From: Fibrobacteria bacterium
Lineage (GTDB): Bacteria > Fibrobacterota > Chitinivibrionia > Chitinivibrionales > FEN-1185
Assembly: GCA_037447435.1 (NCBI GenBank)
Contig: JBBIGR010000033.1
Location: 1 to 58,154, forward strand
Direction: 5' to 3'
DNA: 58,154 bases
Numbering within the stretch: position 1 is the first letter of the stretch; each line of letters begins with the position of its first letter. The position numbers and the translations under genes are program-made. This document shows, piece after piece, positions 18,706 to 45,844 of this stretch. The notes under the pieces are model-generated. The model saw only the letters and a list, made by a program, of their open reading frames with translations, ran no database searches and was not told where the DNA came from.

Positions 18706-19425
18706 TTATGAGACCGCATAATTTTCAAAGGCGTCTCGTAATTCCTGATCCTTTGGTTTTATGCATAAATCAATATCCTGCGAATCGAATTGAATGATTT
18801 CCCCAAACAAAGGATTTTTTTCGCACGCCGCTTCCCATTTTCCGCAAAATTCCGAAAGCCATTGACATAAAGATTCCATTGCGACCTTTCGTTCGAACGC
18901 ATTGTTTTGCGAGGATCTTTTCAGGCTTTCGAGGCGCTGGATGACTGCATTGCAAATATCGATTTCCTCGCTTGCCGAGGTGATTTGAACTTCTCCAAAG
19001 CCCGATCCTGCCAAATAAGCGACCAGATGCGGGTGTTCGCATATCTTTGCAAAGGAATTTTTTGCCTTTTCAAACGAAGCCCACCGCGATCGCGGCAAAG
19101 TCGCACCCATTCCGAGCATAGACAGGGAATCTTTTCCAAAACTTATTTTAGCGGCCTGCACGAATTCGAGATACCGTGCCGCAATACTTTTTTGCAAACC
19201 GATAATCCGGGAATCCAATGCATTGATTTCCTCATCGTCCGACATTTCCGCCCCAACGGCTATCGTTGCTTTATCGTAAAGCTGCCGTCCCAATTCAAAC
19301 CGCGTTTTCGGAAACCCGTCGCTTTCCATACAAGACGCCGCTGTTTCATGGAACGGTACGCTTGTAAGGACCGAATGAGCATAACGCAATATTTTTGTTA
19401 TTTTCGACCTTTGTACCTTCAGCAT
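18706..19425 (-). CDS. Helical hypothetical protein
   Basis: 239-aa ORF with an AAGGA RBS, overlapping the upstream radical SAM stop. Confidence 0.7.
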   Translation of the reverse strand: MLKVQRSKITKILRYAHSVLTSVPFHETAASCMESDGFPKTRFELGRQLYDKATIAVGAEMSDDEEINALDSRIIGLQKSIAARYLEFVQAAKISFGKDSLSMLGMGATLPRSRWASFEKAKNSFAKICEHPHLVAYLAGSGFGEVQITSASEEIDICNAVIQRLESLKRSSQNNAFERKVAMESLCQWLSEFCGKWEAACEKNPLFGEIIQFDSQDIDLCIKPKDQELRDAFENYAVS

Positions 19426-20255
19426 AAGTTTTCCTTTCGCACGGACTTGGTTTGACGCACACCATTCTCGGCCGCACCATGGTTTACAACACGAACTTTG
19501 GGGCCAAAATATGAAGCAAGATATTGCAACCGGACGATATCGGCCGAAACTGTTTTTAAGCCGCGATCGGCCGGTACGAAGGTTCGGACCATAATCTGTT
19601 TAGGGGCGAGGTTTTTGACCATTGCTGCCAAAGCCGCAACATGCGATTCATGAGAATTTATTCCGTCGACAAGGCTCACATTCACAGTGAATTCGCCCCT
19701 GAAACGCGATCGAAACTCGAAAAGTCCATTTACAAATCGCAAGTAAGGTATTTGCACCTGATACTGATTTATGGCGTGAAAAACATTTTTGTCTGCAGCA
19801 TCGATATTCGCGGAAACACTATCGGCGTTTTGAAGGTCTTGCTGTACCCCTTTCATCCATAACAATCCGCCGCACGATGCGACGGTTACGGGAACCGCGG
19901 TAGTTTTTTTTATGCCGCTTATAATTGCCCTGAGGTCGGAATGAAGAGTCGCTTCTCCGGGCCCGCAGATCACAATGTTTTGAACTGGACCGTTCCGACA
20001 CAATCTGCGTTCAAGATCATGGATGATCTTCTCTGTTAAGAAAAAGCATTCCCTGTTAATCGTCGCACGACTTGTCGGACCATAAGGGCAGTACGGGCAA
20101 TTGCCCGGGCAAACTTTATCGGGAACAGCATGTATTTCCAGGCAGTGTTTCCTGTCGAATCCGGTATTCCACACCAAGCCCTTTGCAATACAAGAGTCGT
20201 CGTTCTCCCCGGCAATCGAGCTCGCTTGCGGGAATATGATTGTTTTGGGATTCAT
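19419..20255 (-). CDS. Divergent radical SAM / Fe-S oxidoreductase (COG0731-like)
   Basis: CPGNCPYC, GPGEATL and GIN motifs; AGGAG RBS. Confidence 0.78.
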   Translation of the reverse strand: MNPKTIIFPQASSIAGENDDSCIAKGLVWNTGFDRKHCLEIHAVPDKVCPGNCPYCPYGPTSRATINRECFFLTEKIIHDLERRLCRNGPVQNIVICGPGEATLHSDLRAIISGIKKTTAVPVTVASCGGLLWMKGVQQDLQNADSVSANIDAADKNVFHAINQYQVQIPYLRFVNGLFEFRSRFRGEFTVNVSLVDGINSHESHVAALAAMVKNLAPKQIMVRTFVPADRGLKTVSADIVRLQYLASYFGPKVRVVNHGAAENGVRQTKSVRKENLC

Positions 20256-20326
20256 AAAAAGACTCCTGATATCAATTAAATGACACTTTTATTCCGCAAA
20301 GGTTCATTGAGCCTCATTACCTAACC

Positions 20327-20342
20327 GCAGATATTGTGCCAA
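20327..20342 (-). promoter_or_regulatory. Sigma54 (-24/-12) promoter
   Basis: TTGGCAC-AATAT-CTGC, about 70 nt upstream of the 20255 start and divergent from a sigma54 activator. Confidence 0.8.
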
Positions 20343-20356
20343 ACATTACTCTTTTG

Positions 20357-20369
20357 CAACTATTTGATT
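20357..20369 (-). promoter_or_regulatory. IHF-binding site
   Basis: AATCAAATAGTTG matches WATCAANNNNTTR exactly. Confidence 0.65.
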
Positions 20370-20405
20370 TATATAAATAATGAAACTATATTATTATATT
20401 TACAG

Positions 20406-20438
20406 GTCATTTTGACTGAATTTCACTGTCTTTTTGAC
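20406..20438. promoter_or_regulatory. Tandem palindromic upstream activator sequences
   Basis: GTCATTTTGAC (20406) and GTCTTTTTGAC (20428), with starts 22 bp apart. Confidence 0.65.
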
Positions 20439-20447
20439 AGAGGTATC

Positions 20448-22061
20448 ATGAAAGCTGCAAATCTCTCCATAAGCGAACTCATACAGTTTTCTCCCGGTTT
20501 TGTCGGACTTCAGGGCAGACGGCTACTTATTCACGATCTCTCGTCGCTTGGCCAATTCCGAAAGGATTTGATCGAGACCATCGGTGAAGATATGGCCCGG
20601 CGAATTCTTACCCGAAAAGGATTATTTTGGGGACAGGCGGATTGCGCGGGTATGCAAAGGCTGTTTACGTGGGACAGCAAAGAGGAATTGATCAAGGCCG
20701 TCGCGGAGCTCATTAAAATCATCGGGTTCGGCTATGCCGAAATAATCGAGATCTCACTTGAGGAATCATCGAACGCATTAACCATGCAATTGCGTTGTGC
20801 CGATTCGGCCGAAGTCGAACAACACCGTAATGAATTCGGTAAGGCTTTGGCACCGATCTGCTGGGTGATCGTCGGATATTTGAGCGGGTATGTTTCGTAT
20901 TGCCTTGGTAAAAACGTTTATTTTTCGGAAACCAAATGCCAGGGTGCCGAAGCGTCAAATTGCATTTTCATCGGAAAAGACATTGACACATGGGGAAACG
21001 AATTCGATACCCAATTGCCCTTTTTCCTCGCCGCCGACATACAGAAAAGGGTGCAACGGCTGTCTATGAGGATTCGCGAACAACAGCGGGCATTAAACGT
21101 GCATCGCAAACAATTGCAGGCTTCGCAAGTGCCGGCATTACTTTCCGGAGTGGAAACGAAAAGCAAGGCTTTTATGAACGTGCTGGCACTCTCGGACAGG
21201 GTCGCCTCCTTCGACACGACCATCCTCATTACCGGTGAAACCGGCACGGGCAAGGAATTGCTGGCCCGTCATATCCATGGAATATCGGCACGAAAACACC
21301 ATCCGTTTTTGGCAGTCAATTGCTCGGCCCTCCCCGAGTCCCTTCTTGAGAACGAACTTTTCGGCCACAAAGCGGGTTCCTTTACCGGCGCTCACAGCAG
21401 TGAAATAGGTCTTTTTGAAGCTGCGGAAAAGGGCACGATATTTCTTGATGAAATCGGAGATATTTCACTCTCCACACAGGCGAAACTTTTGCGCGTTTTA
21501 CAATCCAAGGAAATAAGACCCGTAGGCCAGATGAAGCCCCAGCACATAGACGTCAGGGTGATTTCGGCGACGAACCGCGATCTTGACAAATTGGTCAGCG
21601 AAGGATTGTTCCGGGAAGATTTGCTGTATCGCTTGCGGGTCCTGAACATTGTTGTTCCTCCATTGCGCGAACGGACCGAAGACATACTGCCGCTCGCACG
21701 GTTTTTCGTATCGAAGCTCGCAAAAAAATATGCCATTTTGAATCTACGGCTCGATCCGCAAACCGTCGATGTTCTCACCCGTTATTTTTGGCCGGGAAAT
21801 GTGCGACAGCTTGAGAATGCGCTTGAACATGCCGCGGTATTGTGCAACGACGGCGTATTAACCCCGGAAACGTTACCCGCGGCCATAAACGGCGCCGATG
21901 GCACCCCCATCAACGCCGTAAAAGTAATCCCCCTTGAGGAAATCGAAACGCAACACATACGGTCGATTCTAAAATTGACCGGTGGAAACAGAGCGGAAAC
22001 GGCCAAGGTGCTGGGAATTAGCGAATCGACATTATATCGCAGGCTGCGAATTTCGAAATAG
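20448..22061 (+). CDS. Sigma54-dependent activator, XylR/DmpR type (XylR_N + V4R + AAA+ + Fis HTH)
   Basis: V4R Cys residues (PIC..ETKC..C), GETGTGKE, GSFTGA, FLDEIG, WPGNVRQL and a C-terminal HTH. Confidence 0.92.
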   Translation: MKAANLSISELIQFSPGFVGLQGRRLLIHDLSSLGQFRKDLIETIGEDMARRILTRKGLFWGQADCAGMQRLFTWDSKEELIKAVAELIKIIGFGYAEIIEISLEESSNALTMQLRCADSAEVEQHRNEFGKALAPICWVIVGYLSGYVSYCLGKNVYFSETKCQGAEASNCIFIGKDIDTWGNEFDTQLPFFLAADIQKRVQRLSMRIREQQRALNVHRKQLQASQVPALLSGVETKSKAFMNVLALSDRVASFDTTILITGETGTGKELLARHIHGISARKHHPFLAVNCSALPESLLENELFGHKAGSFTGAHSSEIGLFEAAEKGTIFLDEIGDISLSTQAKLLRVLQSKEIRPVGQMKPQHIDVRVISATNRDLDKLVSEGLFREDLLYRLRVLNIVVPPLRERTEDILPLARFFVSKLAKKYAILNLRLDPQTVDVLTRYFWPGNVRQLENALEHAAVLCNDGVLTPETLPAAINGADGTPINAVKVIPLEEIETQHIRSILKLTGGNRAETAKVLGISESTLYRRLRISK

Positions 22062-28101: not shown

Positions 28102-29166
28102 ATGGTTGAAAATTATAGAAAAGAAATAAACAAAATATTGGGTGACATGATAAAAAAAGCATTTTGGATTTCAATGACAAATCCCGGTTTTGCCTTTACA
28201 ATGTTGCGATTTGCGAAACACTTCGGAACGGCCAACAAAATCAGGGAATCTTACGAAAATCAAGGGATAATGGTACCGCCTTTCATCATTATGAGCATTA
28301 CGCATCAATGCAACTTGTACTGCACCGGATGTTATGCAAAGGAACTTCACCCGCCAAAGGGTGAAGAATTAAATAAAATCGAATGGGAACGCATATTGGA
28401 AGAAGCAGAAGCATTAGGCGTATCTTTTGTGGTGGTTTTAGGAGGTGAACCGTTTTGCAGAAAGGATTTTTTCGACATTACGGGAAAATTTCCAAACCTT
28501 ATATTCATGGTATTTACAAATGGAACATTGCTCGACGAAGAAAAAGTGATGTTGATAAAAAACAGGAAAAATATAGTGCCCATGCTCAGTGTAGAGGGAA
28601 AAGAGCTTGATACCGATGCCAGGCGCGGGTCGGGAGTATTTATGAAATGCAATAAAGCCGCATCACTTTTTAAAAAGCACGGCGTTTTTTACGGGGCATC
28701 AATAACTGCTTGTAAGACGAATTACGATGCTTCCACAGACCCGCAATTTATCGAAGAACTATACGCTATGAAATGCAAAGTTTTTTTCTATATAGAATAT
28801 TTACCGGCGCAATGCGGGACGGAATCGTTGGCTCTCGATAAAACTCAAAAACAAGCATTGAAACAATTCGTTGGAACGATGCGGAAAAAGCACAACGCAA
28901 TATTTTTCGACTTTCCCGGTGATGAATACGATCTCGGCATTTGCCTTTCGGCCGGAAGAGGGTTTGTGCATATCAGTGCAGAGGGAGATGTTGAACCGTG
29001 TCCTTTTTCCCCTTTTTCCGATTGCAATCTTAGGGACAAATCATTTTTAGCAAGCTTGAAGTCGAACCTTTTCGACAAAATCCGAAAAATGCCAAAAGAC
29101 CGCTGCAATACCAAAGGGAATTGCGCCCTTTTTGAGAACCGAACATGGGTTGCGGCTCAAGTATGA
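28102..29166 (+). CDS. Radical SAM protein with a Twitch/SPASM-like C-terminus
   Basis: CNLYCTGC, GGEP, FTNG, CLSAG...GDVEPCPF. Confidence 0.9.
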   Translation: MVENYRKEINKILGDMIKKAFWISMTNPGFAFTMLRFAKHFGTANKIRESYENQGIMVPPFIIMSITHQCNLYCTGCYAKELHPPKGEELNKIEWERILEEAEALGVSFVVVLGGEPFCRKDFFDITGKFPNLIFMVFTNGTLLDEEKVMLIKNRKNIVPMLSVEGKELDTDARRGSGVFMKCNKAASLFKKHGVFYGASITACKTNYDASTDPQFIEELYAMKCKVFFYIEYLPAQCGTESLALDKTQKQALKQFVGTMRKKHNAIFFDFPGDEYDLGICLSAGRGFVHISAEGDVEPCPFSPFSDCNLRDKSFLASLKSNLFDKIRKMPKDRCNTKGNCALFENRTWVAAQV

Positions 29167-29248: not shown

Positions 29249-30289
29249 TTATTGCTTATTGTGCAAAAACCCGTTCGGATAATGGTTTTCCATAAATTCC
29301 GAAAGGTCCTCATTGTTGCTTTTTAATAAATCGGGATTTGCTTTCAGGGCTTTTGGAAAATTGGTGAGCAGTAATTTTTCCGGTTCCCCGGAATACAGAA
29401 CCCTGATTTTTGTCACGGCATTGATGGGGTTGCCCATGCCGTCAAATACCGTTATCGCAAAAAAATGGCCCCATATCGATACGACAGCAAGGATAACGAG
29501 GACGCTTAAATTCAAACGGGAATAGGGCTTGCGAAAGGAACGATACAAAACGGCAAATGCGACGGGAACAAATCCGAGCAGAAACACAAGCAGCGACCGT
29601 CCCGGTCTGGAAGAATCGATTATGCCGAAGGGAATCACGGGATTGACAATAGGCGGTATCGGCCTGAGAACCAAGGTGCTTGTTGACGGATCGCTACTGG
29701 AGACGGCATTTGGCGACAGCAGCTTGGGCCCGGTTTTTGTAAATGACCGGGCATCGGTAAGAAAAACAACGACGGAACCGACTGAGAAAATACAGAAAAA
29801 CACCAATGTCCATTTTGCAAAGAACCGCATATCGAACGAATAGCGGCTTTTCACAGCCCGAAATACGAGTGCTGCAAGCAAAAGCATGTACATGATAAAA
29901 GCCGCTCTCACACACCATTTTCGTAACGCAATCTTGAAATATTCCTGCAGACGATACCCGACAGGAGTGGAATTTTTCAATGCCGGGTCCGTTTTTGCAG
30001 CTTTTTTATACCAAAAATGCCATTGTTCCGCCTGGCGCACATGGTCGATGTCGTAATAAGTGTCGCCGATCCGTTTGTAAAGGACTGCGCGCATTGTTGC
30101 ATTTGGAAATTTTTTATTTACCCGTTCGCAGGTTTTTGCATATGCAAGCAAATCGCTTGCGCCGGAGCCGGGATTTGCTTCAAGGCATTTAGAAACCGCG
30201 CTATCGCCGTTTTCGATCGATGCCGGTGCTGCAATCGAATTTGATGTGAGGATTGCCGCCGCAAAGACGAGTGAAAAAAGCGATTTCAT
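29249..30289 (-). CDS. Hypothetical membrane protein (signal peptide, TPR-like domain, about 4 TM helices)
   Basis: 346-aa ORF; its ATG overlaps the stop of the small upstream ORF (ATGA). Confidence 0.75.
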   Translation of the reverse strand: MKSLFSLVFAAAILTSNSIAAPASIENGDSAVSKCLEANPGSGASDLLAYAKTCERVNKKFPNATMRAVLYKRIGDTYYDIDHVRQAEQWHFWYKKAAKTDPALKNSTPVGYRLQEYFKIALRKWCVRAAFIMYMLLLAALVFRAVKSRYSFDMRFFAKWTLVFFCIFSVGSVVVFLTDARSFTKTGPKLLSPNAVSSSDPSTSTLVLRPIPPIVNPVIPFGIIDSSRPGRSLLVFLLGFVPVAFAVLYRSFRKPYSRLNLSVLVILAVVSIWGHFFAITVFDGMGNPINAVTKIRVLYSGEPEKLLLTNFPKALKANPDLLKSNNEDLSEFMENHYPNGFLHNKQ

Positions 30290-30465
30290 TTTTCATCTTT
30301 TGCCTTTCCTTTAATAAGCGCTGCGCAAAGTGCGATGATCGCGCCGAGAGCGATAAAGGCAAGAGGAAAGGAATACAATACCGTGCCGATGCTGCTTGAA
30401 TTCGGATTGTAACCCTTTTTGATTTTAAGAACCCCGCGGGGAAATCTGATCGCTTTTTGGTTCAT
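30286..30465 (-). CDS. Small membrane-anchored peptide with a GYNPNSSS motif; candidate radical SAM substrate
   Basis: AAAGGTGA RBS; basic N-region, GYNPNSSSIG, one TM helix and a Lys-rich tail. Confidence 0.75.
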   Translation of the reverse strand: MNQKAIRFPRGVLKIKKGYNPNSSSIGTVLYSFPLAFIALGAIIALCAALIKGKAKDEK

Positions 30466-30507
30466 GTCGTCACCTTTTGACAAAGTGAATATCGAACAGC
30501 AAATTGA

Positions 30508-31734
30508 TTATATCGACCTCTTGGAAATCGACTGCCGATGCGTATAATCGAACACGAACGGGCATTCCGGATCCGGTGCAAAGAAATCGTTTGTATAGAA
30601 GCCTGCCGTTGCACGGCACCCGCAGCGGCACAAAGACAGATACCGACAAGACCGGCACGGTTTTTGTGCGGAAGCGACCAATTGACGGAAACGATTCAGG
30701 TGACGCGAAGCGCTCCATTGCTCGCCGATCTTCGACACCTGATCGTTATCGCTATTATCAACAAACGAACAGCCGGCAAAGACGCCGTCGCTTTTGACCG
30801 AAAGCAGCATATTGCCGGCGTCGCAACCGCTTACCGCGCATTTTTCGAGATCGCTTTTTTCCGGTTTATGATACAGTACTGCGGGAACAAACGAGCAATC
30901 GATTTTAAGTTCCAATGAATCGGGGCGATTGAAACGCATGAGCATCGGATAAAACGCCCGTATCATTTCCTGAGTGAGCGCGTTTGCGGCATACCATTGC
31001 TTCGCCCGTCCCGATGGTTTGATTTTAAGAAATTCAACTTCATTCAATCCTTCACGCGCCGCAAACTCGACGATTTTTTCGAGGAAGTAAAAATTATTCC
31101 GCGACACCACGCAGTTGATGCCGACCGATACCGCCGCATGTTTGAGCGCCCGGATTGCGTTTTCGATTTGTTCGAAGGATCCGTTCCTGCCGTTGACGGA
31201 GAAATCCTTCCCAACGGCGTCGCATGAGATATTCACTTGCCCCATGAGCTTGCAAATTTCAATTTCATGTTTTCCAATTGACAATCCGTTTGTCGTCAGG
31301 TTCGGAACCAGCCCGATTTCGCGGGAATACAGGACAATTTCATGCAAGTCGCTTCTTGTAAACGCTTCCCCGCCTCCCAGCGCGACATGAAACACTCCCA
31401 GATCGCGCAACGATTTCAATGAAGCCTTAAGCGCATCGGTGGAAAGTTCGGCGCATTCGGACGGTTGCGAGTCTTTATAACAGCCTAAGCATCCGTTGGA
31501 ACATCGATTGGTCACTGCCCAATGTACTTCGGTGGGGGCCGAAAGGAATGCCTCGCCCTGTCGGGCAATGCCTTTTTTCTCCCATAATGGGGACGCACAA
31601 TACCCGAGTTTGCGCATGAAGCCTTTATCGACCCATGCAAGAAACGGCGGATCTATCGACGAAATGATGCCGCCGAAAGACTCATAACGAACACGGTGTA
31701 TCGACGGTTCGGAAGTAGTATCGTTTTTTTTCAT
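30508..31734 (-). CDS. Radical SAM/SPASM maturase (PqqE/MftC-like) with an RRE-like N-terminus
   Basis: RYESFGG N-terminus, CSNGCLGC, and a full SPASM motif C-x12-G-x4-C...CxxC-x5-C-x3-C...DPEC. Confidence 0.9.
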   Translation of the reverse strand: MKKNDTTSEPSIHRVRYESFGGIISSIDPPFLAWVDKGFMRKLGYCASPLWEKKGIARQGEAFLSAPTEVHWAVTNRCSNGCLGCYKDSQPSECAELSTDALKASLKSLRDLGVFHVALGGGEAFTRSDLHEIVLYSREIGLVPNLTTNGLSIGKHEIEICKLMGQVNISCDAVGKDFSVNGRNGSFEQIENAIRALKHAAVSVGINCVVSRNNFYFLEKIVEFAAREGLNEVEFLKIKPSGRAKQWYAANALTQEMIRAFYPMLMRFNRPDSLELKIDCSFVPAVLYHKPEKSDLEKCAVSGCDAGNMLLSVKSDGVFAGCSFVDNSDNDQVSKIGEQWSASRHLNRFRQLVASAQKPCRSCRYLSLCRCGCRATAGFYTNDFFAPDPECPFVFDYTHRQSISKRSI

Positions 31735-31760: not shown

Positions 31761-32888
31761 TTACTCCACAAGAACAATTTTTTGAAGTGCATTCCGGTCG
31801 CGTGCCGCCCATTTGACGATGTACAGGCCTTTCATCAGGCCTGAGAGATCCAAGCGCATTTGTGCCGATGTCGATATGCCGCTCACAGCAACCTTTCCGT
31901 TGACATCTACGATCATATAGCGAGCGCCTACGGAGCTAACAATGGTAAACGTGTTCTTTCCCGGACCGTACGGTCCGTTTTTTTCCGCATTTTGAATTTT
32001 TTCTTTCACGTCGTTGGCTATCGGATTGATAATTGTGACAGCATCGACTATGGTTCCGTTGTTGTTTTTTGCAGTAAAAAGCAACGTGTCTTTCCGGGCG
32101 TCTATGATCGTATAATTATAGATCCCCCCATTATACCCTACCCACCATTTGCTTGCTACCGAATACAACGGAGCACCGGCACCGCCGGTTACCACATAAA
32201 TAGTTCCCGGAGTCTGTTTGATATTATAGGTGGTACCGCTGCCTACGGCAGCACCATTGAAAATCAATTTGCTCCGCTCATATTCATGGTCGTGCCCGGC
32301 AAAGCACATAGTGACATGGTATTGATCGCACAGACTACGGTACTGCGTAACGGCAGCTCCGCTCGATGTCGTTCCATCGGCGCCATGCCCCGACCCCGAA
32401 CTATAAATCGGATAATGATTGAATATAAAACGCCACGTAGCGGCCTGGGATGCCGCGGAACTCAACTGTTGACTGAGCCAGGCGTATCCGCCGTTCGCGC
32501 TGGGGTCCATTCCGCAGGAAACAAAAAAACAATTACCTTGTGTAAATGAATATTCTTCGCTGTTATTCCGGACAACGCTCGGGGAAAGTGCGGACAGCGA
32601 ACTGAAACTTTCGTGATTACCGCGCGAAACCAGATATTTATTCGCAGAAAGCAATCCATTGGTAACCGAGTTTGCTTTTATCGCATTCAGCCACGACGAG
32701 GCCGATGCCGAGCCCCAGCAATCGCCGACATGCAAGACCACCTCGGGATTTTCGGCACCGACTTTATTAGTGATCGAGGTAAAAGTATTCATGTCGTCCC
32801 TACTGTCGCCATAAGCGACGAATTTTGTCGAAAATGCGCTTTTTGCCATGAATAACACCAATATGCTTACGACAAATATCGAACGCAT
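31761..32888 (-). CDS. Secreted metallophosphoesterase (purple acid phosphatase-like) with a T9SS-type CTD
   Basis: YGD, GD, GNHE, GHDHEYERS, GGAGA motifs; C-terminal LMKGLYIVK. Confidence 0.88.
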   Translation of the reverse strand: MRSIFVVSILVLFMAKSAFSTKFVAYGDSRDDMNTFTSITNKVGAENPEVVLHVGDCWGSASASSWLNAIKANSVTNGLLSANKYLVSRGNHESFSSLSALSPSVVRNNSEEYSFTQGNCFFVSCGMDPSANGGYAWLSQQLSSAASQAATWRFIFNHYPIYSSGSGHGADGTTSSGAAVTQYRSLCDQYHVTMCFAGHDHEYERSKLIFNGAAVGSGTTYNIKQTPGTIYVVTGGAGAPLYSVASKWWVGYNGGIYNYTIIDARKDTLLFTAKNNNGTIVDAVTIINPIANDVKEKIQNAEKNGPYGPGKNTFTIVSSVGARYMIVDVNGKVAVSGISTSAQMRLDLSGLMKGLYIVKWAARDRNALQKIVLVE

Positions 32889-33167
32889 AAAACCTCCTTG
32901 ACCCATTAAGGTATAGTATTGTACCTAGTATACCACCGTTATTTCAATTATTCCCGTTTATTTCAAAAACTGCCGCGATTATTTATTAAAAACAATAAAA
33001 GGTGTATACATGTTTAATAGCTTTCACCTATTAATATAATCAATCAAATTTTAATATCAATTATAATTTCATTTTTTTTGTATACACTTGAACTGTGAAG
33101 AAATGCTCTGAAAAAACATTGGAACAGGAAAATCCCAGGTCGTACAAAGCGCGGATGAGGTTATTCC

Positions 33168-34004: not shown

Positions 34005-34139
34005 TTTTTGATTTTTGCTCCTGCGCTTGAAAAAGTATACGTCATTTTAGACGATTTTTCAACGCATTTTTAAACTATTTCGTATACGATACGCACTCGA
34101 TGACGAGTATAAAAGAAGAGCGGTTTAACCAAATGCCTG

Positions 34140-34753
34140 TTACGGCGCGGATGTGCCATTGCCCGCACAACGGGTATATTGTTTTTCAGCCTCGGCGATT
34201 CGATTGCGGCGCAACAATGCATTTGTAATCATTGCCCGTACGGACCGCGCAATACGAACCGATTGACAGAAATAAAAAGAGTGCCATAAGCGACTCGCTT
34301 CTGAACGAAACGCAGCCTGCAGGGACAGCAGCGAGCGGCTGAACGCCAAAGAGTAATACAACGCTCCACCGTTCCAAACGCGAAAGCGGCAAGAAACAAT
34401 TTAGAAAAAACGGTGCCGCAAATGCTGCGGCGCAAAAAATAGCGAGATTGGTACAATGGTATCCAGGCGCCCAGGAGTTGTAGATAGCGGCGTCGAGGCT
34501 ATGAAAAAAGCGTTACCGCCGGACGATAGAATCCACTCGATGCGAAAGGGGTTAAAAAGGCGTGCATCCATTGCGACAGCGGAACAAGGGCGCGCCCGTC
34601 TTCGATGTCGCCGTGATCGAGCCAAATAAAACCGTTTGCCATATACGTGCAGTGCGCGGCAATGAGAACCGCCACGCACGAAACAGCCAAGACAGCGTCG
34701 GGTTTTATTCTCTTTAAGAAAGACCGTATGTCGTACTTGTTGATTTTAGGCAC
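34140..34753 (-). pseudogene. TMTC/PMT-like TPR glycosyltransferase remnant
   Basis: FIWLD...FYRP, frameshift at the A6 tract 34504-34509, then SLD...GYH.TN and LFGVQP...SFRSE, then a jump to a TPR-like tail. Confidence 0.7.
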
Positions 34754-35014
34754 ATGGATCCTTACAAACAAGGAACGCCGAACAGTGAAAATAATCCGCG
34801 GCATTGCTTATTGCTAACTAAGAATTTAATTTCGGCAAAATGCGTTTGCGCGCAGAAACGGTTCATTTGCCCTTGCAAGGCATTTTATGAAGATAGTATG
34901 TTTTTTCGGAATAATGCGAACGCGGGAACCTATTTTAATACTCGTAACGGCAGCATTGCAAATTCGTGCTATAGCAGCCAAAAAAATCACATTCAGTTTC
35001 AAGGGAGCGTTTCA

Positions 35015-37342: not shown

Positions 37343-40300
37343 TTATCTTGCCAAAATCATGATTTTGGATTTTGAAAACTGCGGCGTTCCAATGCGGTAA
37401 ATATAGGGGCCTGAGGCAACACTTTGATTGCGAGCGTCTTTTGCGTCCCAGCCGATACGGTAAAAGCCGACGTCTTGTTTTTGGGCATTGACAAGCTTTC
37501 GGATCAAACGGCCTTGCAGGGTATATACGTATAAATCGACTTTGGTTTTGACCGGTAACGCATAGCGGATCATTGTGGCAAGACGAAACGGGTTTGGGTA
37601 ATTGCCGCTCAGCTCGAAAACAAGCGGCACGGCGCGGCGAGGAAGTGCCTCGGCATAGTCCTTGTACAACGAGGTGTTTTGCGTATAGTCTATCGCTTCG
37701 ATTTTATATTCGTATCGGATATCGTTTAACACACGATAATCGACAAACGAATAGTTTCGGGGTCCTACGGACTTTCCTTGCGCAGCACCCCGGATTATTC
37801 CGCCGGAATTCACCGCAACCCACCCGGTATCTTCCTGTTTTACAAATCCCTTGCGCAAATAGGAAATGACGGGGTCCGACGTATCGGCCTTCGACGAGGC
37901 GTTGCTTGCAATCGCCGAATCCAAAAACGCGGGCTTTATGCGCCGGTAAAGATTAAACCCGAGGTTTTGCAATTCGCTTTCTGTGCGCCAACGCAACGTG
38001 TCGTTGCGATCGCCCGGAAACGCAATAAACCGGTCCATGGTAACGGCCAAGGTCTTGTCGTACGATATATACACATTGGTATTTGTGCAAAACGTTTGAT
38101 TGAGCTGCACTATGACTTCCTGCCTGGTTTTGTTTAAATAAACGTTATATCCGTAATTTTTGGCGAGAAGTTTTTCGGATCCCGATGGTCCGACAAGCAC
38201 ATATTGCGGTTCGGTTGCCGATGTATAATTGGTTATTCGAAATGCGGGATTATACCGGCACGAAGTATCGGCCGCGCTTGCAAGCACCGTAAATTGCACC
38301 GTGTTGTTGGTCGCCGAAATGATATAGGCCCCCTCGCCTTCCGAAAAGCCGTTGGTATCGAGATCACCCCAGGTATGTTTTTGCAACACGCCGTTGCCGT
38401 TCAGTATTGTCAATGCCGGGTTCTGGAAATGCTGCACCGAACAACCGATGGAATCGATGCGGCCGCTGGTCACGTTGGTTTGTTGAAGGTCGGCATACAA
38501 TGCAAATTGCACCGGAACATTTCCCCACATGGTGTCCGGATTCGTCGTTGCGTCATAAAATTCAACACCGAGTCTGCCGTTGTTGGCAATTGACCGAAGC
38601 GTATCGGCAACCCACGGTTGCGCCCATATGCCGCGGCTGTTTCTAAATCCCGTTTTTGCAGAGACAAAATCGGGCATTGTCGTCGAATGAAAACCGCCGC
38701 GCAATTTTGAATGCGGCGTCGGAAGCGTTATGGTCGGCAAATTCAGCGAGTCTTCGTAAAAACCGGTCCAGACGCTTTTAACCGCACCGCTTAAATAAGA
38801 TATGCTATCCCATCTCCAGATTTGACCGGTCGGGTATATTGCCCACCGGGTATCGATATGGAAGGAATCGGTTGAATTTTTTACTTTGCGCGTGTAAAGG
38901 TCCAGCAACACTCTGACGCTTGAACTCTCGGCAATCGAATAGGTAAATGCCGAATCCACGTCTTTATTGGACGTGGGAGTGTTTGAGTTTGCCAATCTGA
39001 TGCCGATCTGACCGAACGAGCCGCTGTAGCCGGCATTATACCCAGGGACGCAATTGATGTTTGCATTCGTATCGAGAAGCGCGCTGGGATTGGTGACCGA
39101 CGAGGAATAATACCACATTTCGCCGTTTTTCGTATTTGTCGCATTACCGTATGTCATTTTCCAATCGAAGAAGAAATTATTGGTCGCCGACGTGCCGAAG
39201 TAATTCCCGGAAAAGTTTTTCACCCATACATGGTTTGCGGTCCCGACCGTTGCCTGGCCCCACAGCATTTGCGGCATCGTCGTCATTGCGGATTGGCCTA
39301 TCGCGCTGTTGCCGACGAAAATCGTCGAGTTGGCATTGATTGTCCGGTTGAACCCGACCGTGAGGGTACGGACGCTTTGGTCGAGGGCGGTAAAGTAATC
39401 GGTCCCGTTTGACAATAATTGCGAATCGACATACACGTTCGTCGGCGGATTGTTGCTCGACCAATAATTTGCGATTTGAAATACCGGCAGGATCCTGTTG
39501 CTGTTAACGCCGTGCATCAGGCATTGCATTTGTCCGTTATTGTCGGCGCGGACGCTGTACATGCCGAGATCGGGTGAATAGCCCTTTAAATAAATTGCCT
39601 TGATTTCCTGATCGGTCAGGTTATATTGATAAAATCGCATGTCGTCAAGAACGCCGTTGAACGATGCGCCCATGGTCACCGAATCCGTACTGCCTGCCGG
39701 GTATCCGGAGCCGAGGGTTTTCATAGTATCGAGATTACCGTTAATGAATAGTTTCATCGTATCTTGCTGCCAGGTCTCTTCCGCCGCAACATGATACCAT
39801 TGTCCCGGATCAAGAACCGTTACTCCGGGTAAAGTCCGTGTCGACGAACCGTTGCCAACCGCAAAAGCGGCTGCACCGCCTGCGTATCCGGACAGATTAT
39901 ACCCTGTTGTCGAATTTCTTTGCCGGAAAAGCATGGTCGCGGCGGTCATGGGTACGGCGGGCTTTACCCAACCCATTATTGTAAACCCGCGCGAAGCATT
40001 GTTGAAATTCGCGGAAGCGCCCGGCCATACCCGGATACTGTCGGTACCGTCCAAACTGTCGCCGTTACCCCACATGCCGCTTGTCCATTTGCCGCCTCCG
40101 CGGATAGTGCCGGCATAGCCGTTTCCCGAAATACTTGCACTGGCGTCGAAAGCCGTGTCCCCGGATTTTTCGTCCATTTTCCAATGTCCTACAAGATATT
40201 TCTCCCAGGCTTTTTCGCACAGCGCAGTGCCGGCAAACCAGCCCAGTGTGTCCGAATTGCGGTAATCGTTGATGTATTTCCACGCGGCGGCGCTGTCGTG

Positions 40301-43300
40301 CAATGACTTATGGGAAAAATCGATCATGAAATTCCAGGTCCTGCGCATCCCGGCGTTGGCGGTCCAGGCGTTCGCGTCGATACCCGCGTATTTCGAGGTT
40401 GCCGTGACCGTGGTGGCCTGCGGCCACAGGTCGAACGGTACCATAAGTAAATCATATTTTCTGGAACCGGAATCAACATGCATCACGGCCTGGCAGGCAG
40501 CGGCAGTGGGACCGTATTGGATATTGTCGTAATTGGCCGTGGCATTGTTTGCAATACGGAATTCCAAACCGCCGCTCACTGCGGCCGCGGCATAGGTGGT
40601 CACGCGGGCGAACAATTTCCCCGAGCCAAGGACGGTATAATCTATTGTCCAGGGTTGGCCCGCCATCGTTTTGGACTGACGGACCCGCGCAAAAACGATG
40701 CTGCTGTCGAGCATGGTAATCGTGCCGGTCCCGGTGTCGCTTTCGCTGCCGTTGTTCAAAAGGTAAAACATGTTTTTGTCAAGTTGATTCGCGGAGGCCG
40801 AATCCTGCGCGAGGAATTTGATGCCGCCTCCTGCGTTCTTGGCAAATTTTATTGCCCAGCGCGTTGTACCGATGTAAATGGAATCCGCTCCGCCATTGTA
40901 CCGTTTTATTGACAAAGGCCGATAGGCGTCGCTGCTGTCGAGCGTGGTTATGGTCGACCCCGTAACCTGATTGCCGTAACACAACTTTATCCAGTCTGCG
41001 GAACGGACCGTGTCTTCCACACGAAGTTCGTTTACCGTGCCGTTGAAATAGCCGTTTGCGTTGGGCAAATACCTGGCGATGTCGAACTCTCCTGATCCTG
41101 CAAAACTTGCCGTTGCGTTCCGCGTGATATTCTGGGCGCCGTTGAGATACAGGATTTGGGCCTTTGTCGACGCATTATACGTCGCGACCCAGTTATACCA
41201 TGTCGCAGTCGACGTGTAGGTCCCTGCGGTCGGCAGATCGTCGTTCCAGAATCCGAAGGAAAACGTATTACCGCTTGTATAGTTGAACTGAAGGCAGTTA
41301 TCGTTTGCCGCGGTTCCTTGAGATGCGATCCATTGATTAAGGCCCGATGCGCCCAGCTTTGCCCAAGCAGAAACCGTTATATTCTTGCCCGAAAGATTGA
41401 TTCCCGACGCAATGCTGAGATATTTGCTCGATCCGTTGAACACTTGTCCTTTTGCGATTACCGACGTGACCGTGTCCGTGACCGCCATGCTGTGCCCCGT
41501 GGCGTTAAAACCGTTGGCCGTAGCATCCTTATAGCCGGTAGTGACGTTGACATCATTTAAATGATACACTGACACAAACCCGTTTGCCGTATCGAAAACC
41601 GAAGCGCCGTTGGAAGTATTGGATGCCGCGGTATTGCCCCAATACATCTTGATATATTGCTGGGCACTGTCCTTGAATATCGTATCGACCTTTACCCACA
41701 TTTCGGCAAGCTGATTGGCCCGGTCCCAGCGCTCGATCTCGTACTGCAAATGCGTACCGTTTGCTTTTGAGAATCTGATGTCCTGGCCGTTTCCCAATGC
41801 CTGACTGAAATTGAAATTAGACGAAGTCAGACGAACCAAATACGGAAACTTGAGAACGGGACCGGACAGCGACAGTCCGTTGGTATTGATAACGATGTTT
41901 TTGGAACATATCCACTTTGAATAATCGTCCGCATCGACAAGCACCTGGTTCGGCTTCTGGTTCTGATAGCAAAGCTTTATCCAGTCGGCCGAACGGGCGA
42001 CCTTTTCCAGCCGGATCTCGTCGAGAAGCCCGTTGATTCGCTCGGCCGGCGTGGAATCGTTTGCCCCGATGGTCGTGAGCGTGGATTTTGAATCGATAGC
42101 ACCGGTTGCGGCAGACGTCGCTTCGGAAAGGCCGTTAAAATAAACATTGAGGGCCGACCCATTATAGGTGCCGGTCAGATACGTCCATTGATTTAATGGA
42201 ATAGTAGAAAGTGATTGGACGCCTTTTATCGCCCCGCCTACGGATATTTTCATGTATGCGTTCGGCGGATTGGTCGCGGTAAAATGCAGCGAGTATACCT
42301 GATAGGGCGAGACATTGGTGGACCATTGCTTTCCGATTATCCTGCCGTAATTCGCGTACGCGACCGGGTTTACCCATCCGCTGAGCGTGAGATTTCCCGT
42401 AATGGAAATATTCGAGCAATCGAGGTATTTTGTGCCGGTAATACTGTCGGCATTACCGATCACGCCCGCGGTACTTTCGTTACCGGTATAATTGTGCGTA
42501 TTGCCGCTATACCCGAGCGGCGCATAATTAAACCTTGACCCGGCGCCGGATTCTCCCAAATGCCAGACGCCGACAAACCCGTTGGCAGTATCGAACACCA
42601 CGTCGCTGTTGTCCATTGCCGTTGCACCGCTGTTTCCCCAGAACATGGAAACGTATTGGGTACCGTTGTTTCCGTACACCGTGTCGATTTTCACCCATAC
42701 GGATGCGTTTTGGTTCACCCTATCCCATTCGTCAATTACATAGGCGCAATGATCGCCGTTTGGCTTCGCAAACCGGATATCGCTGCCGTCGTCTTTTGCC
42801 TGGGAAAAATTGAAATTGCTGCCCGTCAACTTTACCAACAAAGGAAACGCAACGACGTTATTTGGAACATCGGCCCCGTTTACGGTCGTATTAATGTTCA
42901 AATTCTTCGAATAATTCCATCGTGAATAATCTTCCAAATCGACGAACGTCTGATTCGCTTTCTGGTTTTGATAGCAGAGCTTTATCCAATCCGCGGAGCG
43001 CACGACATTGGAAACGACGATTTCGTCCATGTCACCGTCGAACCGATCGCCGGTCGCCGGAGAATGGCCGATGAAAAACGGACCGGTTCCGACATAATTT
43101 CCCGTCGCAGTTCTCGAATTATCCAGAGCGCCGTCCGCAAAAAGACTTTGCAGCTTGGTTGACGTGCTAAACGTGCCGGCAAAATAATGCCAGCCCGTGC
43201 CGCCATTGTACGCGCTTGCCTGGTCTAAATCGTCGCTATAGAATGCGAACGTATATTTCCCGCTTGTTTGCCTAAATCCGAAGTGTAAACCGTTATCGGC

Positions 43301-45844
43301 CGTACCGGTCCCCTGACCGATGATATATCGGCTGTAGCTGGGAACCGCTTCCACGAATTTTGACCAGGCCGAAATGGTAAAGCTCTGGTTTGCAAGGTTC
43401 ACCCCGCTCGGAACACTGTCGTATTGGTTAATACCTGCGTTTACCGAATCGTATCCGCAAATGATTCCGATCGGATTGTAGGTCGCACCGACGCATGAGG
43501 CGCTGTCGTTATTTGCCGTTGCATCGGCACGTTTCTGGGTTCCCGTACCGTTTAAATGCCACACCCCGACAAATCCGTTCGACGTATCGAATACCGCCGC
43601 GCCATTGCTTTTACTTGCGACCGTACTGTTTCCCCAGTACATGTTTATATATTGCGTACTGTTATTTCCCAGAACCGTGTCGACGCGCACCCAAATTGCC
43701 GCAGTCTTATTTGCCTTGTCCCAGGTGTCGACTTGATATACAAGATGCGAACCGTCGGCCTTGGAAAACCGTATGTCCTGGCCGCTGTCTTGGGCTTGGC
43801 TGAAATCGAACGACGTATTTGACAAGCGTATGAGCACCGGAAACGATTGTTGGGGGGTGGCAACATCGGCGCCCGTCGAATAGGTGTTCAGTTTAATTTT
43901 CCTGGTATAATTCCATTGGGAATAGTCGTCCATATCAACCAACGTTTGATTCGCCTGTTGGTTCTGAAAACATAATTTCATCCAATCCGCAGACCTGACG
44001 ACATTTGAAACCACGACTTCGTCTATATTTCCGTCGAAAACGGCTCCTTGTGGGTTTCTTCCTATCAAAAATGCCCCTGTTCCGGAGTAATTTGCAGTCG
44101 CAGTCCTTGAATTATCTAATAATCCATCGACATACAGAGATTGCACCTTGCCTGTTGTGTTGTATGTTGCCGAAAGGAAATGCCATATTGTACCGCCGGA
44201 ATATGTATTGGTCTGATTGAGCCCATCTGTATAAAAATCTATAGACAGTTTTGATGCTGATTGCCGGTATTCCATATGCAATCCATTATCGGCACTGGCA
44301 ATTCCCTGGCCGATTACCGGACGATCGGACCCCGGAGCTGCAACCGCAAGCTTGAACCATACCGAAACAGAAAAGCTGCCGCCGGCAAGACTAACCCCGC
44401 TGGCGACACTGTCGTATTGGTTGTTTGCGGCGATAAAGGTATCGCATCCGGCAATCAAGCCTCCTGCGGTATACGATGCTCCGCCTTTTACTTTTGCGCT
44501 ATCGTTATTTGCCGTGGCGTCCGGGCGCTTTCCCGTACCCGAAGTGTTCAAATGCCATACGCCGACAAACCCGTTGGCCGTATCGAACACCTTGCCGCCG
44601 TTGGAACTGTCGGCCGCAGCGATGTTTCCCCAGTACATTTTAAACGACTGGCTCTTGTCGTTTCCCTTTACCGTGGGAATGAGGACCCATATTTCGGCAG
44701 TATCGTTGTTTCCCGCATTATTTACCCAGCGTTCTATTTGATAGGGCAAATGCGTTCCATCGGTCTTTGAAAACCGTATGTCGCCGCCCCCCGTATTCGT
44801 ATTTGCAAACCCGTTGAAATTTCCCGGATTCAGGCGTAACAGCACGGGAAAATTGGAGACATCGTTCGATACGCCGGCCCCGCTTACCGTGGTCCGCAGG
44901 GTTATGTTTTTAGAAAATGTCCAATTGGCATAATTATCCGTTGCAGCGCTGGCCTGTGTTGTAAAGCTCCATATCGACGAGTAACCGCTGGTACCGGCGC
45001 TGTTTGTCGCGTTTACCCGCCAATAGTATACGGTTGAACCGAGAAGCGCCGGAGTTACCAATTGTGAAGTAGCGACGACACCGCTTACATCGTACGTCGG
45101 CGACGAGCAATCCGAATGCGTGGAAACCTGAACCCGATACGATGTCGCGCCCGTTGCCAAATTCCATTGCATCGTAGGTGTCAACGATTGCCCGGCGCTG
45201 CTGTTTGCAGGAAACGATAATGTCGGCGCCGAAGGCGCCTCGGTCCAGGTGCATTTGTCGTAACGGGTCCAACTATTTCCCTGGTTTGCCGCCAAGCCGA
45301 CCTGGCCGGATGAATGGGACGCATTTGTGACCGAGCCGACGTTTGACCCATTGATATAAAAGGTAAATGTCGTGCCCGCTATATTTATAAGCAATGTTAC
45401 GTTTCGCGTTGCAATTGTCAGGCCGTTGGCAACCACCGTGCCTCCGGACGAACCCAGGTTATCGACATAGAAATTCACCGATCCCGATCCGGCACCGGGA
45501 ACAATCGAAACGAAATAATATGATGAAGTGTTGGAATAGCGAAAAACCACGCCGCCGTTTAGCGGATTGAAACTGGGGGAATTTCCCACACTGTCGAATA
45601 TGACCGTATATTGGCCGTCGCTAGTCAACGTATTGTTATTAATCAGGTATCCGGCGCCGTTCCAACCCGTGGACTGATAGCAATAAGCCCCATTTGAGGT
45701 GTATGCAACAGCGGCACCCGACTGCGTCCAACCGCTCGGCGGTGTTCCGCCGCCGGTAAAATCGTCGCTGAAACTAGTGGAAAAAGCTTCCGCAAAGAGG
45801 ATAAAAACAAGTAAAAAAGCAATATTTAATTGGCGAAAATGCAT
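37343..45844 (-). CDS. Giant secreted protein: ConA-like + FN3 + 4x(DUF2341-LamG) + LamG + FlgD/T9SS-like CTD
   Basis: Four repeats of FP.L.RL...DIRF...W...YWGN...VWHL...RSADW.KLC.; C-terminal NYPNPF...WDAKD...ASGPY. Confidence 0.9.
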   Translation of the reverse strand: MHFRQLNIAFLLVFILFAEAFSTSFSDDFTGGGTPPSGWTQSGAAVAYTSNGAYCYQSTGWNGAGYLINNNTLTSDGQYTVIFDSVGNSPSFNPLNGGVVFRYSNTSSYYFVSIVPGAGSGSVNFYVDNLGSSGGTVVANGLTIATRNVTLLINIAGTTFTFYINGSNVGSVTNASHSSGQVGLAANQGNSWTRYDKCTWTEAPSAPTLSFPANSSAGQSLTPTMQWNLATGATSYRVQVSTHSDCSSPTYDVSGVVATSQLVTPALLGSTVYYWRVNATNSAGTSGYSSIWSFTTQASAATDNYANWTFSKNITLRTTVSGAGVSNDVSNFPVLLRLNPGNFNGFANTNTGGGDIRFSKTDGTHLPYQIERWVNNAGNNDTAEIWVLIPTVKGNDKSQSFKMYWGNIAAADSSNGGKVFDTANGFVGVWHLNTSGTGKRPDATANNDSAKVKGGASYTAGGLIAGCDTFIAANNQYDSVASGVSLAGGSFSVSVWFKLAVAAPGSDRPVIGQGIASADNGLHMEYRQSASKLSIDFYTDGLNQTNTYSGGTIWHFLSATYNTTGKVQSLYVDGLLDNSRTATANYSGTGAFLIGRNPQGAVFDGNIDEVVVSNVVRSADWMKLCFQNQQANQTLVDMDDYSQWNYTRKIKLNTYSTGADVATPQQSFPVLIRLSNTSFDFSQAQDSGQDIRFSKADGSHLVYQVDTWDKANKTAAIWVRVDTVLGNNSTQYINMYWGNSTVASKSNGAAVFDTSNGFVGVWHLNGTGTQKRADATANNDSASCVGATYNPIGIICGYDSVNAGINQYDSVPSGVNLANQSFTISAWSKFVEAVPSYSRYIIGQGTGTADNGLHFGFRQTSGKYTFAFYSDDLDQASAYNGGTGWHYFAGTFSTSTKLQSLFADGALDNSRTATGNYVGTGPFFIGHSPATGDRFDGDMDEIVVSNVVRSADWIKLCYQNQKANQTFVDLEDYSRWNYSKNLNINTTVNGADVPNNVVAFPLLVKLTGSNFNFSQAKDDGSDIRFAKPNGDHCAYVIDEWDRVNQNASVWVKIDTVYGNNGTQYVSMFWGNSGATAMDNSDVVFDTANGFVGVWHLGESGAGSRFNYAPLGYSGNTHNYTGNESTAGVIGNADSITGTKYLDCSNISITGNLTLSGWVNPVAYANYGRIIGKQWSTNVSPYQVYSLHFTATNPPNAYMKISVGGAIKGVQSLSTIPLNQWTYLTGTYNGSALNVYFNGLSEATSAATGAIDSKSTLTTIGANDSTPAERINGLLDEIRLEKVARSADWIKLCYQNQKPNQVLVDADDYSKWICSKNIVINTNGLSLSGPVLKFPYLVRLTSSNFNFSQALGNGQDIRFSKANGTHLQYEIERWDRANQLAEMWVKVDTIFKDSAQQYIKMYWGNTAASNTSNGASVFDTANGFVSVYHLNDVNVTTGYKDATANGFNATGHSMAVTDTVTSVIAKGQVFNGSSKYLSIASGINLSGKNITVSAWAKLGASGLNQWIASQGTAANDNCLQFNYTSGNTFSFGFWNDDLPTAGTYTSTATWYNWVATYNASTKAQILYLNGAQNITRNATASFAGSGEFDIARYLPNANGYFNGTVNELRVEDTVRSADWIKLCYGNQVTGSTITTLDSSDAYRPLSIKRYNGGADSIYIGTTRWAIKFAKNAGGGIKFLAQDSASANQLDKNMFYLLNNGSESDTGTGTITMLDSSIVFARVRQSKTMAGQPWTIDYTVLGSGKLFARVTTYAAAAVSGGLEFRIANNATANYDNIQYGPTAAACQAVMHVDSGSRKYDLLMVPFDLWPQATTVTATSKYAGIDANAWTANAGMRRTWNFMIDFSHKSLHDSAAAWKYINDYRNSDTLGWFAGTALCEKAWEKYLVGHWKMDEKSGDTAFDASASISGNGYAGTIRGGGKWTSGMWGNGDSLDGTDSIRVWPGASANFNNASRGFTIMGWVKPAVPMTAATMLFRQRNSTTGYNLSGYAGGAAAFAVGNGSSTRTLPGVTVLDPGQWYHVAAEETWQQDTMKLFINGNLDTMKTLGSGYPAGSTDSVTMGASFNGVLDDMRFYQYNLTDQEIKAIYLKGYSPDLGMYSVRADNNGQMQCLMHGVNSNRILPVFQIANYWSSNNPPTNVYVDSQLLSNGTDYFTALDQSVRTLTVGFNRTINANSTIFVGNSAIGQSAMTTMPQMLWGQATVGTANHVWVKNFSGNYFGTSATNNFFFDWKMTYGNATNTKNGEMWYYSSSVTNPSALLDTNANINCVPGYNAGYSGSFGQIGIRLANSNTPTSNKDVDSAFTYSIAESSSVRVLLDLYTRKVKNSTDSFHIDTRWAIYPTGQIWRWDSISYLSGAVKSVWTGFYEDSLNLPTITLPTPHSKLRGGFHSTTMPDFVSAKTGFRNSRGIWAQPWVADTLRSIANNGRLGVEFYDATTNPDTMWGNVPVQFALYADLQQTNVTSGRIDSIGCSVQHFQNPALTILNGNGVLQKHTWGDLDTNGFSEGEGAYIISATNNTVQFTVLASAADTSCRYNPAFRITNYTSATEPQYVLVGPSGSEKLLAKNYGYNVYLNKTRQEVIVQLNQTFCTNTNVYISYDKTLAVTMDRFIAFPGDRNDTLRWRTESELQNLGFNLYRRIKPAFLDSAIASNASSKADTSDPVISYLRKGFVKQEDTGWVAVNSGGIIRGAAQGKSVGPRNYSFVDYRVLNDIRYEYKIEAIDYTQNTSLYKDYAEALPRRAVPLVFELSGNYPNPFRLATMIRYALPVKTKVDLYVYTLQGRLIRKLVNAQKQDVGFYRIGWDAKDARNQSVASGPYIYRIGTPQFSKSKIMILAR

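Follow-up and report, generated by a model that had tools for sequence, protein, structure and literature searches.

A radical SAM/SPASM enzyme and a conserved membrane peptide in Fibrobacteria point to an undescribed tag-directed protein modification

The window, a stretch of 58,154 nt from a Fibrobacteria bacterium (assembly GCA_037447435.1, contig JBBIGR010000033.1; forward-strand numbering), encodes a radical S-adenosylmethionine (rSAM) enzyme of the SPASM type, a 59-aa membrane peptide with a serine-rich tag, and a membrane protein. This serine-tag rSAM system points to an undescribed form of tag-directed protein modification. Judged from sequence, the enzyme very probably modifies the adjacent peptide. 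The fuller reading, which we consider probable though far from firm, is that the enzyme, directed by the tag, oxidises the N-S-S region of a membrane-retained peptide, which is partnered by a TPR/4-transmembrane (TM) protein in an envelope module for phosphoester scavenging.

The window operon

Four genes lie in order on the minus strand: a metallophosphoesterase, the rSAM enzyme, the 59-aa peptide and the TPR/4-TM gene. The enzyme ATG follows the end of the phosphoesterase gene after a gap of 26 nt, the enzyme stop codon is 42 nt from the peptide start, and the peptide open reading frame (ORF), which has AAGGTG as its ribosome site, overlaps the following 346-aa ORF at ATGA. The sequence-only reading of this DNA had described the enzyme, the peptide 42 nt downstream and the ATGA-overlapping membrane protein, and the coordinates of all three were confirmed; it had missed the upstream metallophosphoesterase and the nine-gene form of the cluster described below. 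The features of the three genes are as follows.

30508..31734, minus strand: radical SAM/SPASM enzyme, 408 aa, without a TM segment, belonging to a clade without a name
31579..31695, minus strand: short N-terminal domain of the enzyme (residues 14-52) resembling a RiPP recognition element (RRE; RiPP, ribosomally synthesised and post-translationally modified peptide), three strands and two short helices
31480..31503, minus strand: CxxxCxxC SAM-cluster motif (C78/C82/C85), invariant in 44/44 aligned homologues
30562..30897, minus strand: eight auxiliary-cluster Cys (C280, 304, 322, 360, 363, 369, 373, 391), invariant in 44/44
30286..30465, minus strand: 59-aa membrane peptide, putative substrate
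30385..30435, minus strand: conserved peptide head, residues 11-27, with per-position frequencies from 170 homologues
30313..30369, minus strand: peptide residues 33-51, a hydrophobic membrane helix, hydropathy 2.64
29249..30289, minus strand: 346-aa protein with signal peptide, outside TPR-like domain and four TM segments, translationally coupled to the peptide

Conservation of the peptide

The peptide consists of a basic head, one hydrophobic helix and a basic tail. The consensus of the head, G-[KR]-[IV]-L-[RK]-[VIL]-K-x-G-[YF]-N-P-N-S-S-S-[MILV]-G, combines a strand-like basic leader with an NSSS tag. A phmmer search over 1.84 billion representatives (50 % identity) returned 63 peptide matches, and a profile built from 61 of these and the window peptide (one truncated match and one repeat false positive were excluded) matched 1981 of 8000 scored candidates at 90 % clustering, 120 of them listed. 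Among the matches listed are some named as Planctomycetota, as Kiritimatiellae and as a deltaproteobacterial symbiont. The 63 representative matches and the 1981 matching candidates indicate that the peptide locus is not a chance ORF.

The pattern G-x-N-x-N-S-S was present in 170 of 172 peptide sequences. Counting from its Gly as position 0, Pro+3, Ser+7 and Gly+9 were found in 170/170 without having been filter criteria, and Lys-2 in 99 %. Position +1 is Tyr in 94 %, Phe in 5 % and Thr in 2 % (3 sequences); the three Thr homologues, P0008, P0011 and P0014, are natural probes of aromatic-residue reactivity. The 15 residues preceding the core are basic, their net charge averaging +4.4. After the core comes an uncharged stretch with a median of 31 residues, a TM follower conserved in both length and sequence. 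Among 94 distinct DNA copies the core codons vary synonymously, with switching between TCN and AGY at two serines, and selection therefore acts on the protein.

Linkage and distribution

Metagenome loci were represented by the best 80 of 372 confirmed matches. An rSAM gene was found in 59 of the 80 and a TPR/TM gene in 73, while all 24 loci with sufficient flanks contained enzyme, peptide and TPR/TM gene together. Across 296 Fibrobacterota genomes, the peptide was present in 11 and the enzyme in 10, all inside those 11, with neither in the other 285; in the eleventh peptide genome the adjacent enzyme gene has a large internal deletion. Conservation of the peptide beside enzyme homologues, which the sequence-only reading had proposed as a check, was thus borne out by both datasets. 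At one locus (L025/L034, genome G069) the enzyme (161 aa) and the TM protein (152 aa) are both internally deleted and the peptide is intact, owing to decay or an assembly artefact.

A nine-gene form of the cluster recurs, encoding in order a long TPR/FN3/4-TM protein, a helical exported protein (weakly FEA1-like), peptide B, a TlpA/ResA-like thioredoxin, a phosphoesterase fusion, peptide A, the TPR/4-TM protein, the rSAM enzyme and a DUF2950-like protein. Here the phosphoesterase is fused to thioredoxin-like and CcdA/ArsG-like membrane domains, the CcdA label resting on a two-Cys pattern seen by eye and a sub-cut-off ArsG match. Both TM types occur in 8 of 15 two-peptide loci, and 7 of those 8 have one enzyme. 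Upstream of one nine-gene cluster lies a second enzyme of the same clade (L089:3-1136). In a GC-rich subgroup (L054, L082, L085, L090) with GFNPNSSSVGTT peptides, the rSAM gene is followed by one for a cytochrome c protein with helical flanks, which we take to be FTR1/PbrT-like.

The same genome contains a decayed second copy on another contig (C48, about 19270-20686; L108:9271-10687), in which frameshifted C-terminal fragments of the enzyme accompany a core-less peptide remnant in frame with an intact TPR/4-TM paralogue (36 % identical).

The rSAM/SPASM enzyme

The enzyme clears the SPASM cut-off of TIGR04085 (42.4 vs 27 bits); the Pfam SPASM model gave no match. It had been described from sequence as carrying a seven-Cys SPASM motif, and the SPASM assignment stood while the count rose to eight invariant auxiliary Cys with the addition of C280. 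By analogy with SuiB and anSME, as far as the accessible part of PMC6231123 describes them, both auxiliary clusters are inferred to be fully Cys-ligated. In whole-chain alignment, the best fold matches of the enzyme model were SuiB and SkfB, N-termini included, and the top six fold entries were all peptide maturases. The best PDB sequence match was PqqE (E 2e-29).

The N-terminus, with its RYESFGG segment at residues 16-22, had been likened to MftB or an RRE. The likeness to an RRE held in the model, where this part aligns with the N-termini of SuiB and SkfB; a hidden Markov model (HMM) match to MftB was not obtained. Within the whole-chain model it shows three strands and two short helices, compared with three strands and three helices for an RRE.

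Assignment to named families gave scores below every cut-off tried: MftC (TIGR03962, 118.9 vs 265 bits, with the MftA-type C-terminal core also absent), PqqE (TIGR02109, 97.1 vs 381), the heme enzymes NirJ, AhbC and AhbD (TIGR04051/04054/04055/04545/04546, 85-116 vs 500-650), the GeoRSP rSAM (TIGR04303, 121.8 vs 400) and the dynobactin maturase (NF041298, 55.3 vs 450). By these cut-offs the enzyme lies outside AhbC/NirJ, non-peptide families to which it would have had to belong for the sequence-only reading to be refuted on this point. It would work as an RRE-SPASM peptide maturase does, or as an anSME does on a protein-internal motif, yet it fits no tested family.

Comparison with known systems

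The window system is like mycofactocin (MftC/MftA/MftB; TIGR03962) in that a short conserved peptide is encoded next to a SPASM enzyme. MftC was the nearest named family in one tree (80/88), and the F-G-[GA] strand turn of the window enzyme resembles MftB. Unlike in mycofactocin, however, the RRE-like part is short and fused to the enzyme, the core is an internal N-P-N-S-S-S instead of a C-terminal Val-Tyr, the peptide has a TM follower, and no other mft genes occur among the recurring neighbours. Compared with PqqE/PqqA/PqqD, the peptide has no Glu-x-x-x-Tyr core and there are no pqq genes. The window enzyme is 16 % identical to SuiB, which with SuiA makes the streptide-type Lys-Trp cross-link (PDB 5V1S/5V1T), and its putative substrate has a membrane anchor and no Lys-Trp core. 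The donor Cys of sactipeptides and ranthipeptides is likewise lacking, Cys occurring in the core region of 2 of 170 peptides.

The enzymes anSME and AtsB convert Ser or Cys to formylglycine at the motif S/C-x-P-x-R. This motif is absent from the peptide, which reads N-P-N-S-S-S; the presumed substrate is not a sulfatase, and the window enzyme differs in having an N-terminal RRE-like domain. AtsB oxidises Ser by abstracting a C-beta hydrogen, according to the accessible part of PMC10114670. In the dynobactin maturase, as described in the accessible part of PMC11002830, Trp at position i is joined to Asn at i+3 by a C-C link. An equivalent spacing of an aromatic residue and Asn is found both in the peptide (Y-N-P-N) and in the phage proteins described below (F-V-S-N), with Tyr or Phe in 167 of 170 peptides; in contrast to dynobactin, the peptide has no Trp, Thr replaces the aromatic residue in 3 of 170 and the product is apparently unreleased. 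A literature search by motif found no relevant paper in the sources it covered, subscription journals being outside the search.

Tagged soluble proteins in phages and plasmids

Proteins with K-I-x-x-G-F-x-x-NSSS beside rSAM genes, which the sequence-only reading had named as recurring, do exist and probably belong to a sister system. Searching with a DNA pattern for R-x-G-F-V-[ST]-N-S-S-S turned up 88 viral stretches. The 80 that were examined encode 188 distinct proteins, frequently arranged in arrays, that begin with MK[IT]RxGFVSNSSSSSF; 27 of the 80 stretches have an rSAM gene within 3 kb. Beyond the tag, 156 complete viral proteins fall into 55 sequence clusters, none with a TM segment. 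The arrays, at viral loci L109-L188 and L239-L317 beside a twitch-type rSAM family, comprise diverse acidic proteins, up to about nine per array, with an N-terminal MKIRxGFVSNSSSSSF. Seventeen of the tag-linked viral rSAMs form one family of this type, whose enzyme is contained in 173 annotated phage records. A tag-like match was found within 5 kb in 72 of 79 phage enzyme loci compared with 17 of 79 reversed-sequence controls, a count that is not fully independent because the enzyme query was built from tag-linked enzymes. In cultured phage GAP161 the enzyme and two tagged proteins (at about 66.4 and 70.4 kb; L237, L238) are about 20-24 kb apart, a separation indicating that enzyme and tag can act in trans.

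On plasmids, a tblastn search with the window enzyme found MftC, PqqE and unnamed rSAMs of Rhizobium and Agrobacterium. Two of the latter were inspected and lie directly behind MK(I/L)KMDFVSNSSS proteins. In both (Rhizobium, L227:599-5050; Agrobacterium, L230:1-3990) the pair of tag protein and rSAM comes after an NTPase with a SMEK domain and a small conserved gene. The Rhizobium SMEK-domain protein gave weak Avs2-like PADLOC matches, and these pairs are possibly defence-linked cassettes. Examples of soluble tag-enzyme pairs are WP_183600147.1 and WP_183600145.1 of Rhizobium sophoriradicis, and AFC22265.1 of phage GAP161 with its two tagged proteins.

In a pairwise hhalign comparison (E 3.3e-4, probability 38 %), the phage tag MKIRNGFVSNSSSS and the peptide head aligned in register. 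All branches have N-S-S(-S) and, apart from the three Thr homologues, an aromatic residue at +1. They do not share Asn+2, Pro+3 or Gly0, the last being Asp in the plasmid pairs. In the model of one phage family, tag residues 1-10 were of low confidence and project from a folded domain starting at residue 13, an exposure as expected of an accessible substrate.

Probable kinship of the window clade with the phage and plasmid enzymes

A profile of the phage rSAMs scored all 44 members of the window clade at 49-97 bits, above all 72 other rSAMs scored (maximum 39) and above the solved rSAM structures, of which BtrN was best at 22 bits. The window clade and the phage and plasmid rSAMs were joined with support of 96/95 in a tree from which five long branches were dropped, of 97/93 in a mixture-model tree of 25 rows, and of 96/92 in a mixture-model tree of 23 rows that included MftC and PqqE on a careful alignment. 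Six motifs were found in 41-44 of 44 window-clade members, 17-18 of 18 phage and 2 of 2 plasmid enzymes, compared with 0-5 of 40 outgroups. These results suggest that the window clade is likely to be akin to the NSSS-linked enzymes of phages and plasmids. Several results weigh against this kinship. With MftC and PqqE on an automatic alignment, support for the joint clade dropped to 78/28, and in the first, quick tree of 37 rows it was unresolved. With the window clade's own profile, MftC reached 185 bits, more than the NSSS-linked enzymes of plasmids (109-112) or of phages (49-82). The six motifs were chosen by eye after both families had been seen, and the outgroups came mostly from Fibrobacterota.

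Membrane protein and phosphoesterase

The 346-aa protein has a signal-like segment at residues 3-21 and TM segments at 125-143, 160-178, 230-248 and 263-281. No Pfam family was found for it; TPR matches, several of them weak, occurred in 5 of 6 scanned type-A homologues. The short basic loops at TM1-2 and TM3-4 would place the TPR domain outside. The protein evolves fast (13-42 % identity across 35 homologues) and has no invariant polar residue, and is for this reason read as a scaffold or sensor. The first gene and the site upstream of it are as follows.

31761..32888, minus strand: exported metallophosphoesterase (Pfam Metallophos, E 3.8e-12) with a C-terminal domain of the type IX secretion system type (Por_Secre_tail)
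32918..32947, minus strand: sigma-70-like promoter match (10/12) upstream of the phosphoesterase, a consensus match only

The region holds 14 sigma-70-like sites compared with 8.9 +/- 2.3 in shuffles. The phosphoesterase, probably the first gene of the operon, carries the motifs GDS/GD/GNHE/H/GHDH and starts at ATG 32888, preceded by AGGAGG (the longest ORF starts at 32906). With a profile of cluster phosphoesterases it was the sole ORF scoring at least 40 bits in the 5.05-Mb genome. Of 22 loci with sufficient flanks, 15 have a phosphoesterase no more than 5 kb away, a low-scoring non-orthologue in 4 of the 15, compared with 0.2 % of random positions in this genome. Among the 63 of 113 neighbours that were scanned, PhoD, DSP-type and HAD phosphatases, TonB receptors and metal/anion ABC genes occur sporadically.

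Proposed mechanism and alternatives

The short RRE-like sheet of the cytoplasmic enzyme would capture the strand-like basic leader (L-K-I-K-K), and a 5'-deoxyadenosyl radical would abstract hydrogen from the invariant N22-S23-S24-S25, the two electrons leaving through the fully Cys-ligated auxiliary clusters. Provided that this reading holds, oxidation of a Ser C-beta, for which AtsB is a precedent, has a chance not far short of even; the product would be a dehydro residue or one resembling formylglycine, perhaps with backbone cleavage as a next step. Another kind of cross-link, or epimerisation, is less likely, and a cross-link from Tyr or Phe to Asn(i+3), for which dynobactin is a precedent but which is impossible in the Thr variants because the aromatic residue is replaced, a little less likely still. 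The lack of an export signal in the enzyme, together with the basic head of the peptide, makes it most likely that the peptide remains in the membrane, its tag inside. The product would then be unreleased, anchored by its helix with a cytoplasmic tag, and paired with the TPR/4-TM protein and its outward TPR domain. In what is the weakest step, the modified complex would serve envelope phosphoester scavenging, or metal or redox support of the phosphoesterase. The sister enzymes of phages and plasmids would use the same tag chemistry on soluble proteins.

The motif may instead be a docking tag, with the peptide tethering the rSAM to the membrane complex, the enzyme acting on a small molecule, a lipid or another protein (e.g. 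the phosphoesterase product) and the phage tag gathering partners on the enzyme. This is unlikely: Asn and Ser are invariant in both branches and Ser is kept through codon-box changes, in our judgement a stricter pattern than docking alone would impose, and the top fold entries are peptide maturases. We consider it more doubtful still that the peptide is a conventional RiPP or cofactor precursor, whose core would be excised by an unlinked protease (e.g. after K-x-G) and released as a redox cofactor or metal binder, as in mycofactocin and PQQ. In one tree no named relative is closer than MftC, which is also a top NCBIfam and plasmid match, and the TlpA, CcdA-like and cytochrome c neighbours point to a redox function; K-x-G-[YF] also presumably resembles a prepilin cleavage site. 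However, the residues after G-Y are polar, unlike those of prepilins, the TM follower is conserved and the tags of the sister enzymes' partners are fused to folded domains with conserved C-termini. Nor is any peptidase, exporter or further tailoring enzyme conserved among the recurring neighbours; the sequence-only reading had noted that no protease or ABC exporter is adjacent, and this proved general apart from one-off peptidases. Least probable is that the peptide has a structural role, as a subunit of a TPR/4-TM/phosphoesterase envelope complex, the enzyme maturing another cluster protein. Peptide number does track TPR/4-TM number more than enzyme number in the two-peptide loci, and at one locus (G242) a peptide-TM pair stands beside phosphoesterases with no enzyme in 15 kb. 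The other cluster proteins, however, are exported or have no invariant motif while the enzyme is cytoplasmic, and the phage and plasmid branches share the tag but not the TM partner.

Other points weigh against modification of the peptide within a phosphoester-scavenging module. The evidence for modification is entirely genomic or modelled. The metagenome loci were picked by motif pattern and include near-duplicates, and cluster members served to train the phosphoesterase profile. The RRE-like part gave no HMM match to MftB or PqqD and has two short helices, not three. Five genomes of the same genus have neither enzyme nor peptide, so the system is accessory, and the decayed copy on C48 kept its TM gene while the peptide core and most of the enzyme were lost. 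An 11-bp-spaced direct repeat like that of pstS was not found in the 262 bp upstream of the window operon (one repeat rule tried). Phosphate regulation of the operon is unsupported because this Pho-type repeat, present at one pstS promoter, is absent here. That promoter, on contig C38 of the same genome (about 4400), carries TTTAACA-N4-TCTAACA with 11-bp spacing, a likely Pho box for the lineage.

A tag-directed oxidation of this kind would add an uncharacterised branch of peptide-modifying rSAM chemistry, with a Cys-free Ser/Asn core and a membrane-retained product. More tentatively, a widespread undescribed group of rSAMs may use a portable N-terminal Asn-Ser-Ser-Ser tag as the site of a new post-translational mark, in a general tag-and-modify system and not a RiPP pathway. 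The mark could be a reactive aldehyde or an N-terminal carbonyl generated by cleavage; in anaerobes it would sit on a membrane-retained mini-protein that links the cytoplasm with an outward TPR sensor and phosphoesterases, and in large phages on diverse proteins in arrays of up to about nine. Such a finding would bear on about two thousand bacterial mini-proteins and on phage gene arrays without assigned function. If the link to phages and plasmids is true, soluble tagged proteins, such as the two of GAP161, would be far easier substrates than the membrane peptide of an uncultured anaerobe, and a short portable tag that is enzymatically turned reactive would be useful for protein labelling.

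Other features of the window

A second, convergent rSAM with a weak SPASM/twitch match lies at 28102-29166 (plus strand) and is unrelated to the cluster. A TIGR02147 match in the vicinity agrees with a Fibrobacterota host. Short ORFs at about 34070-34804 (minus strand) resemble the start of a 593-aa membrane/TPR protein encoded after the decayed C48 copy, with 73 % DNA identity to that gene over 119 bp, and apparently represent a broken gene. Further upstream, 37343-45844 (minus strand) encodes a 2833-aa exported protein with repeated beta-sandwich-like segments.

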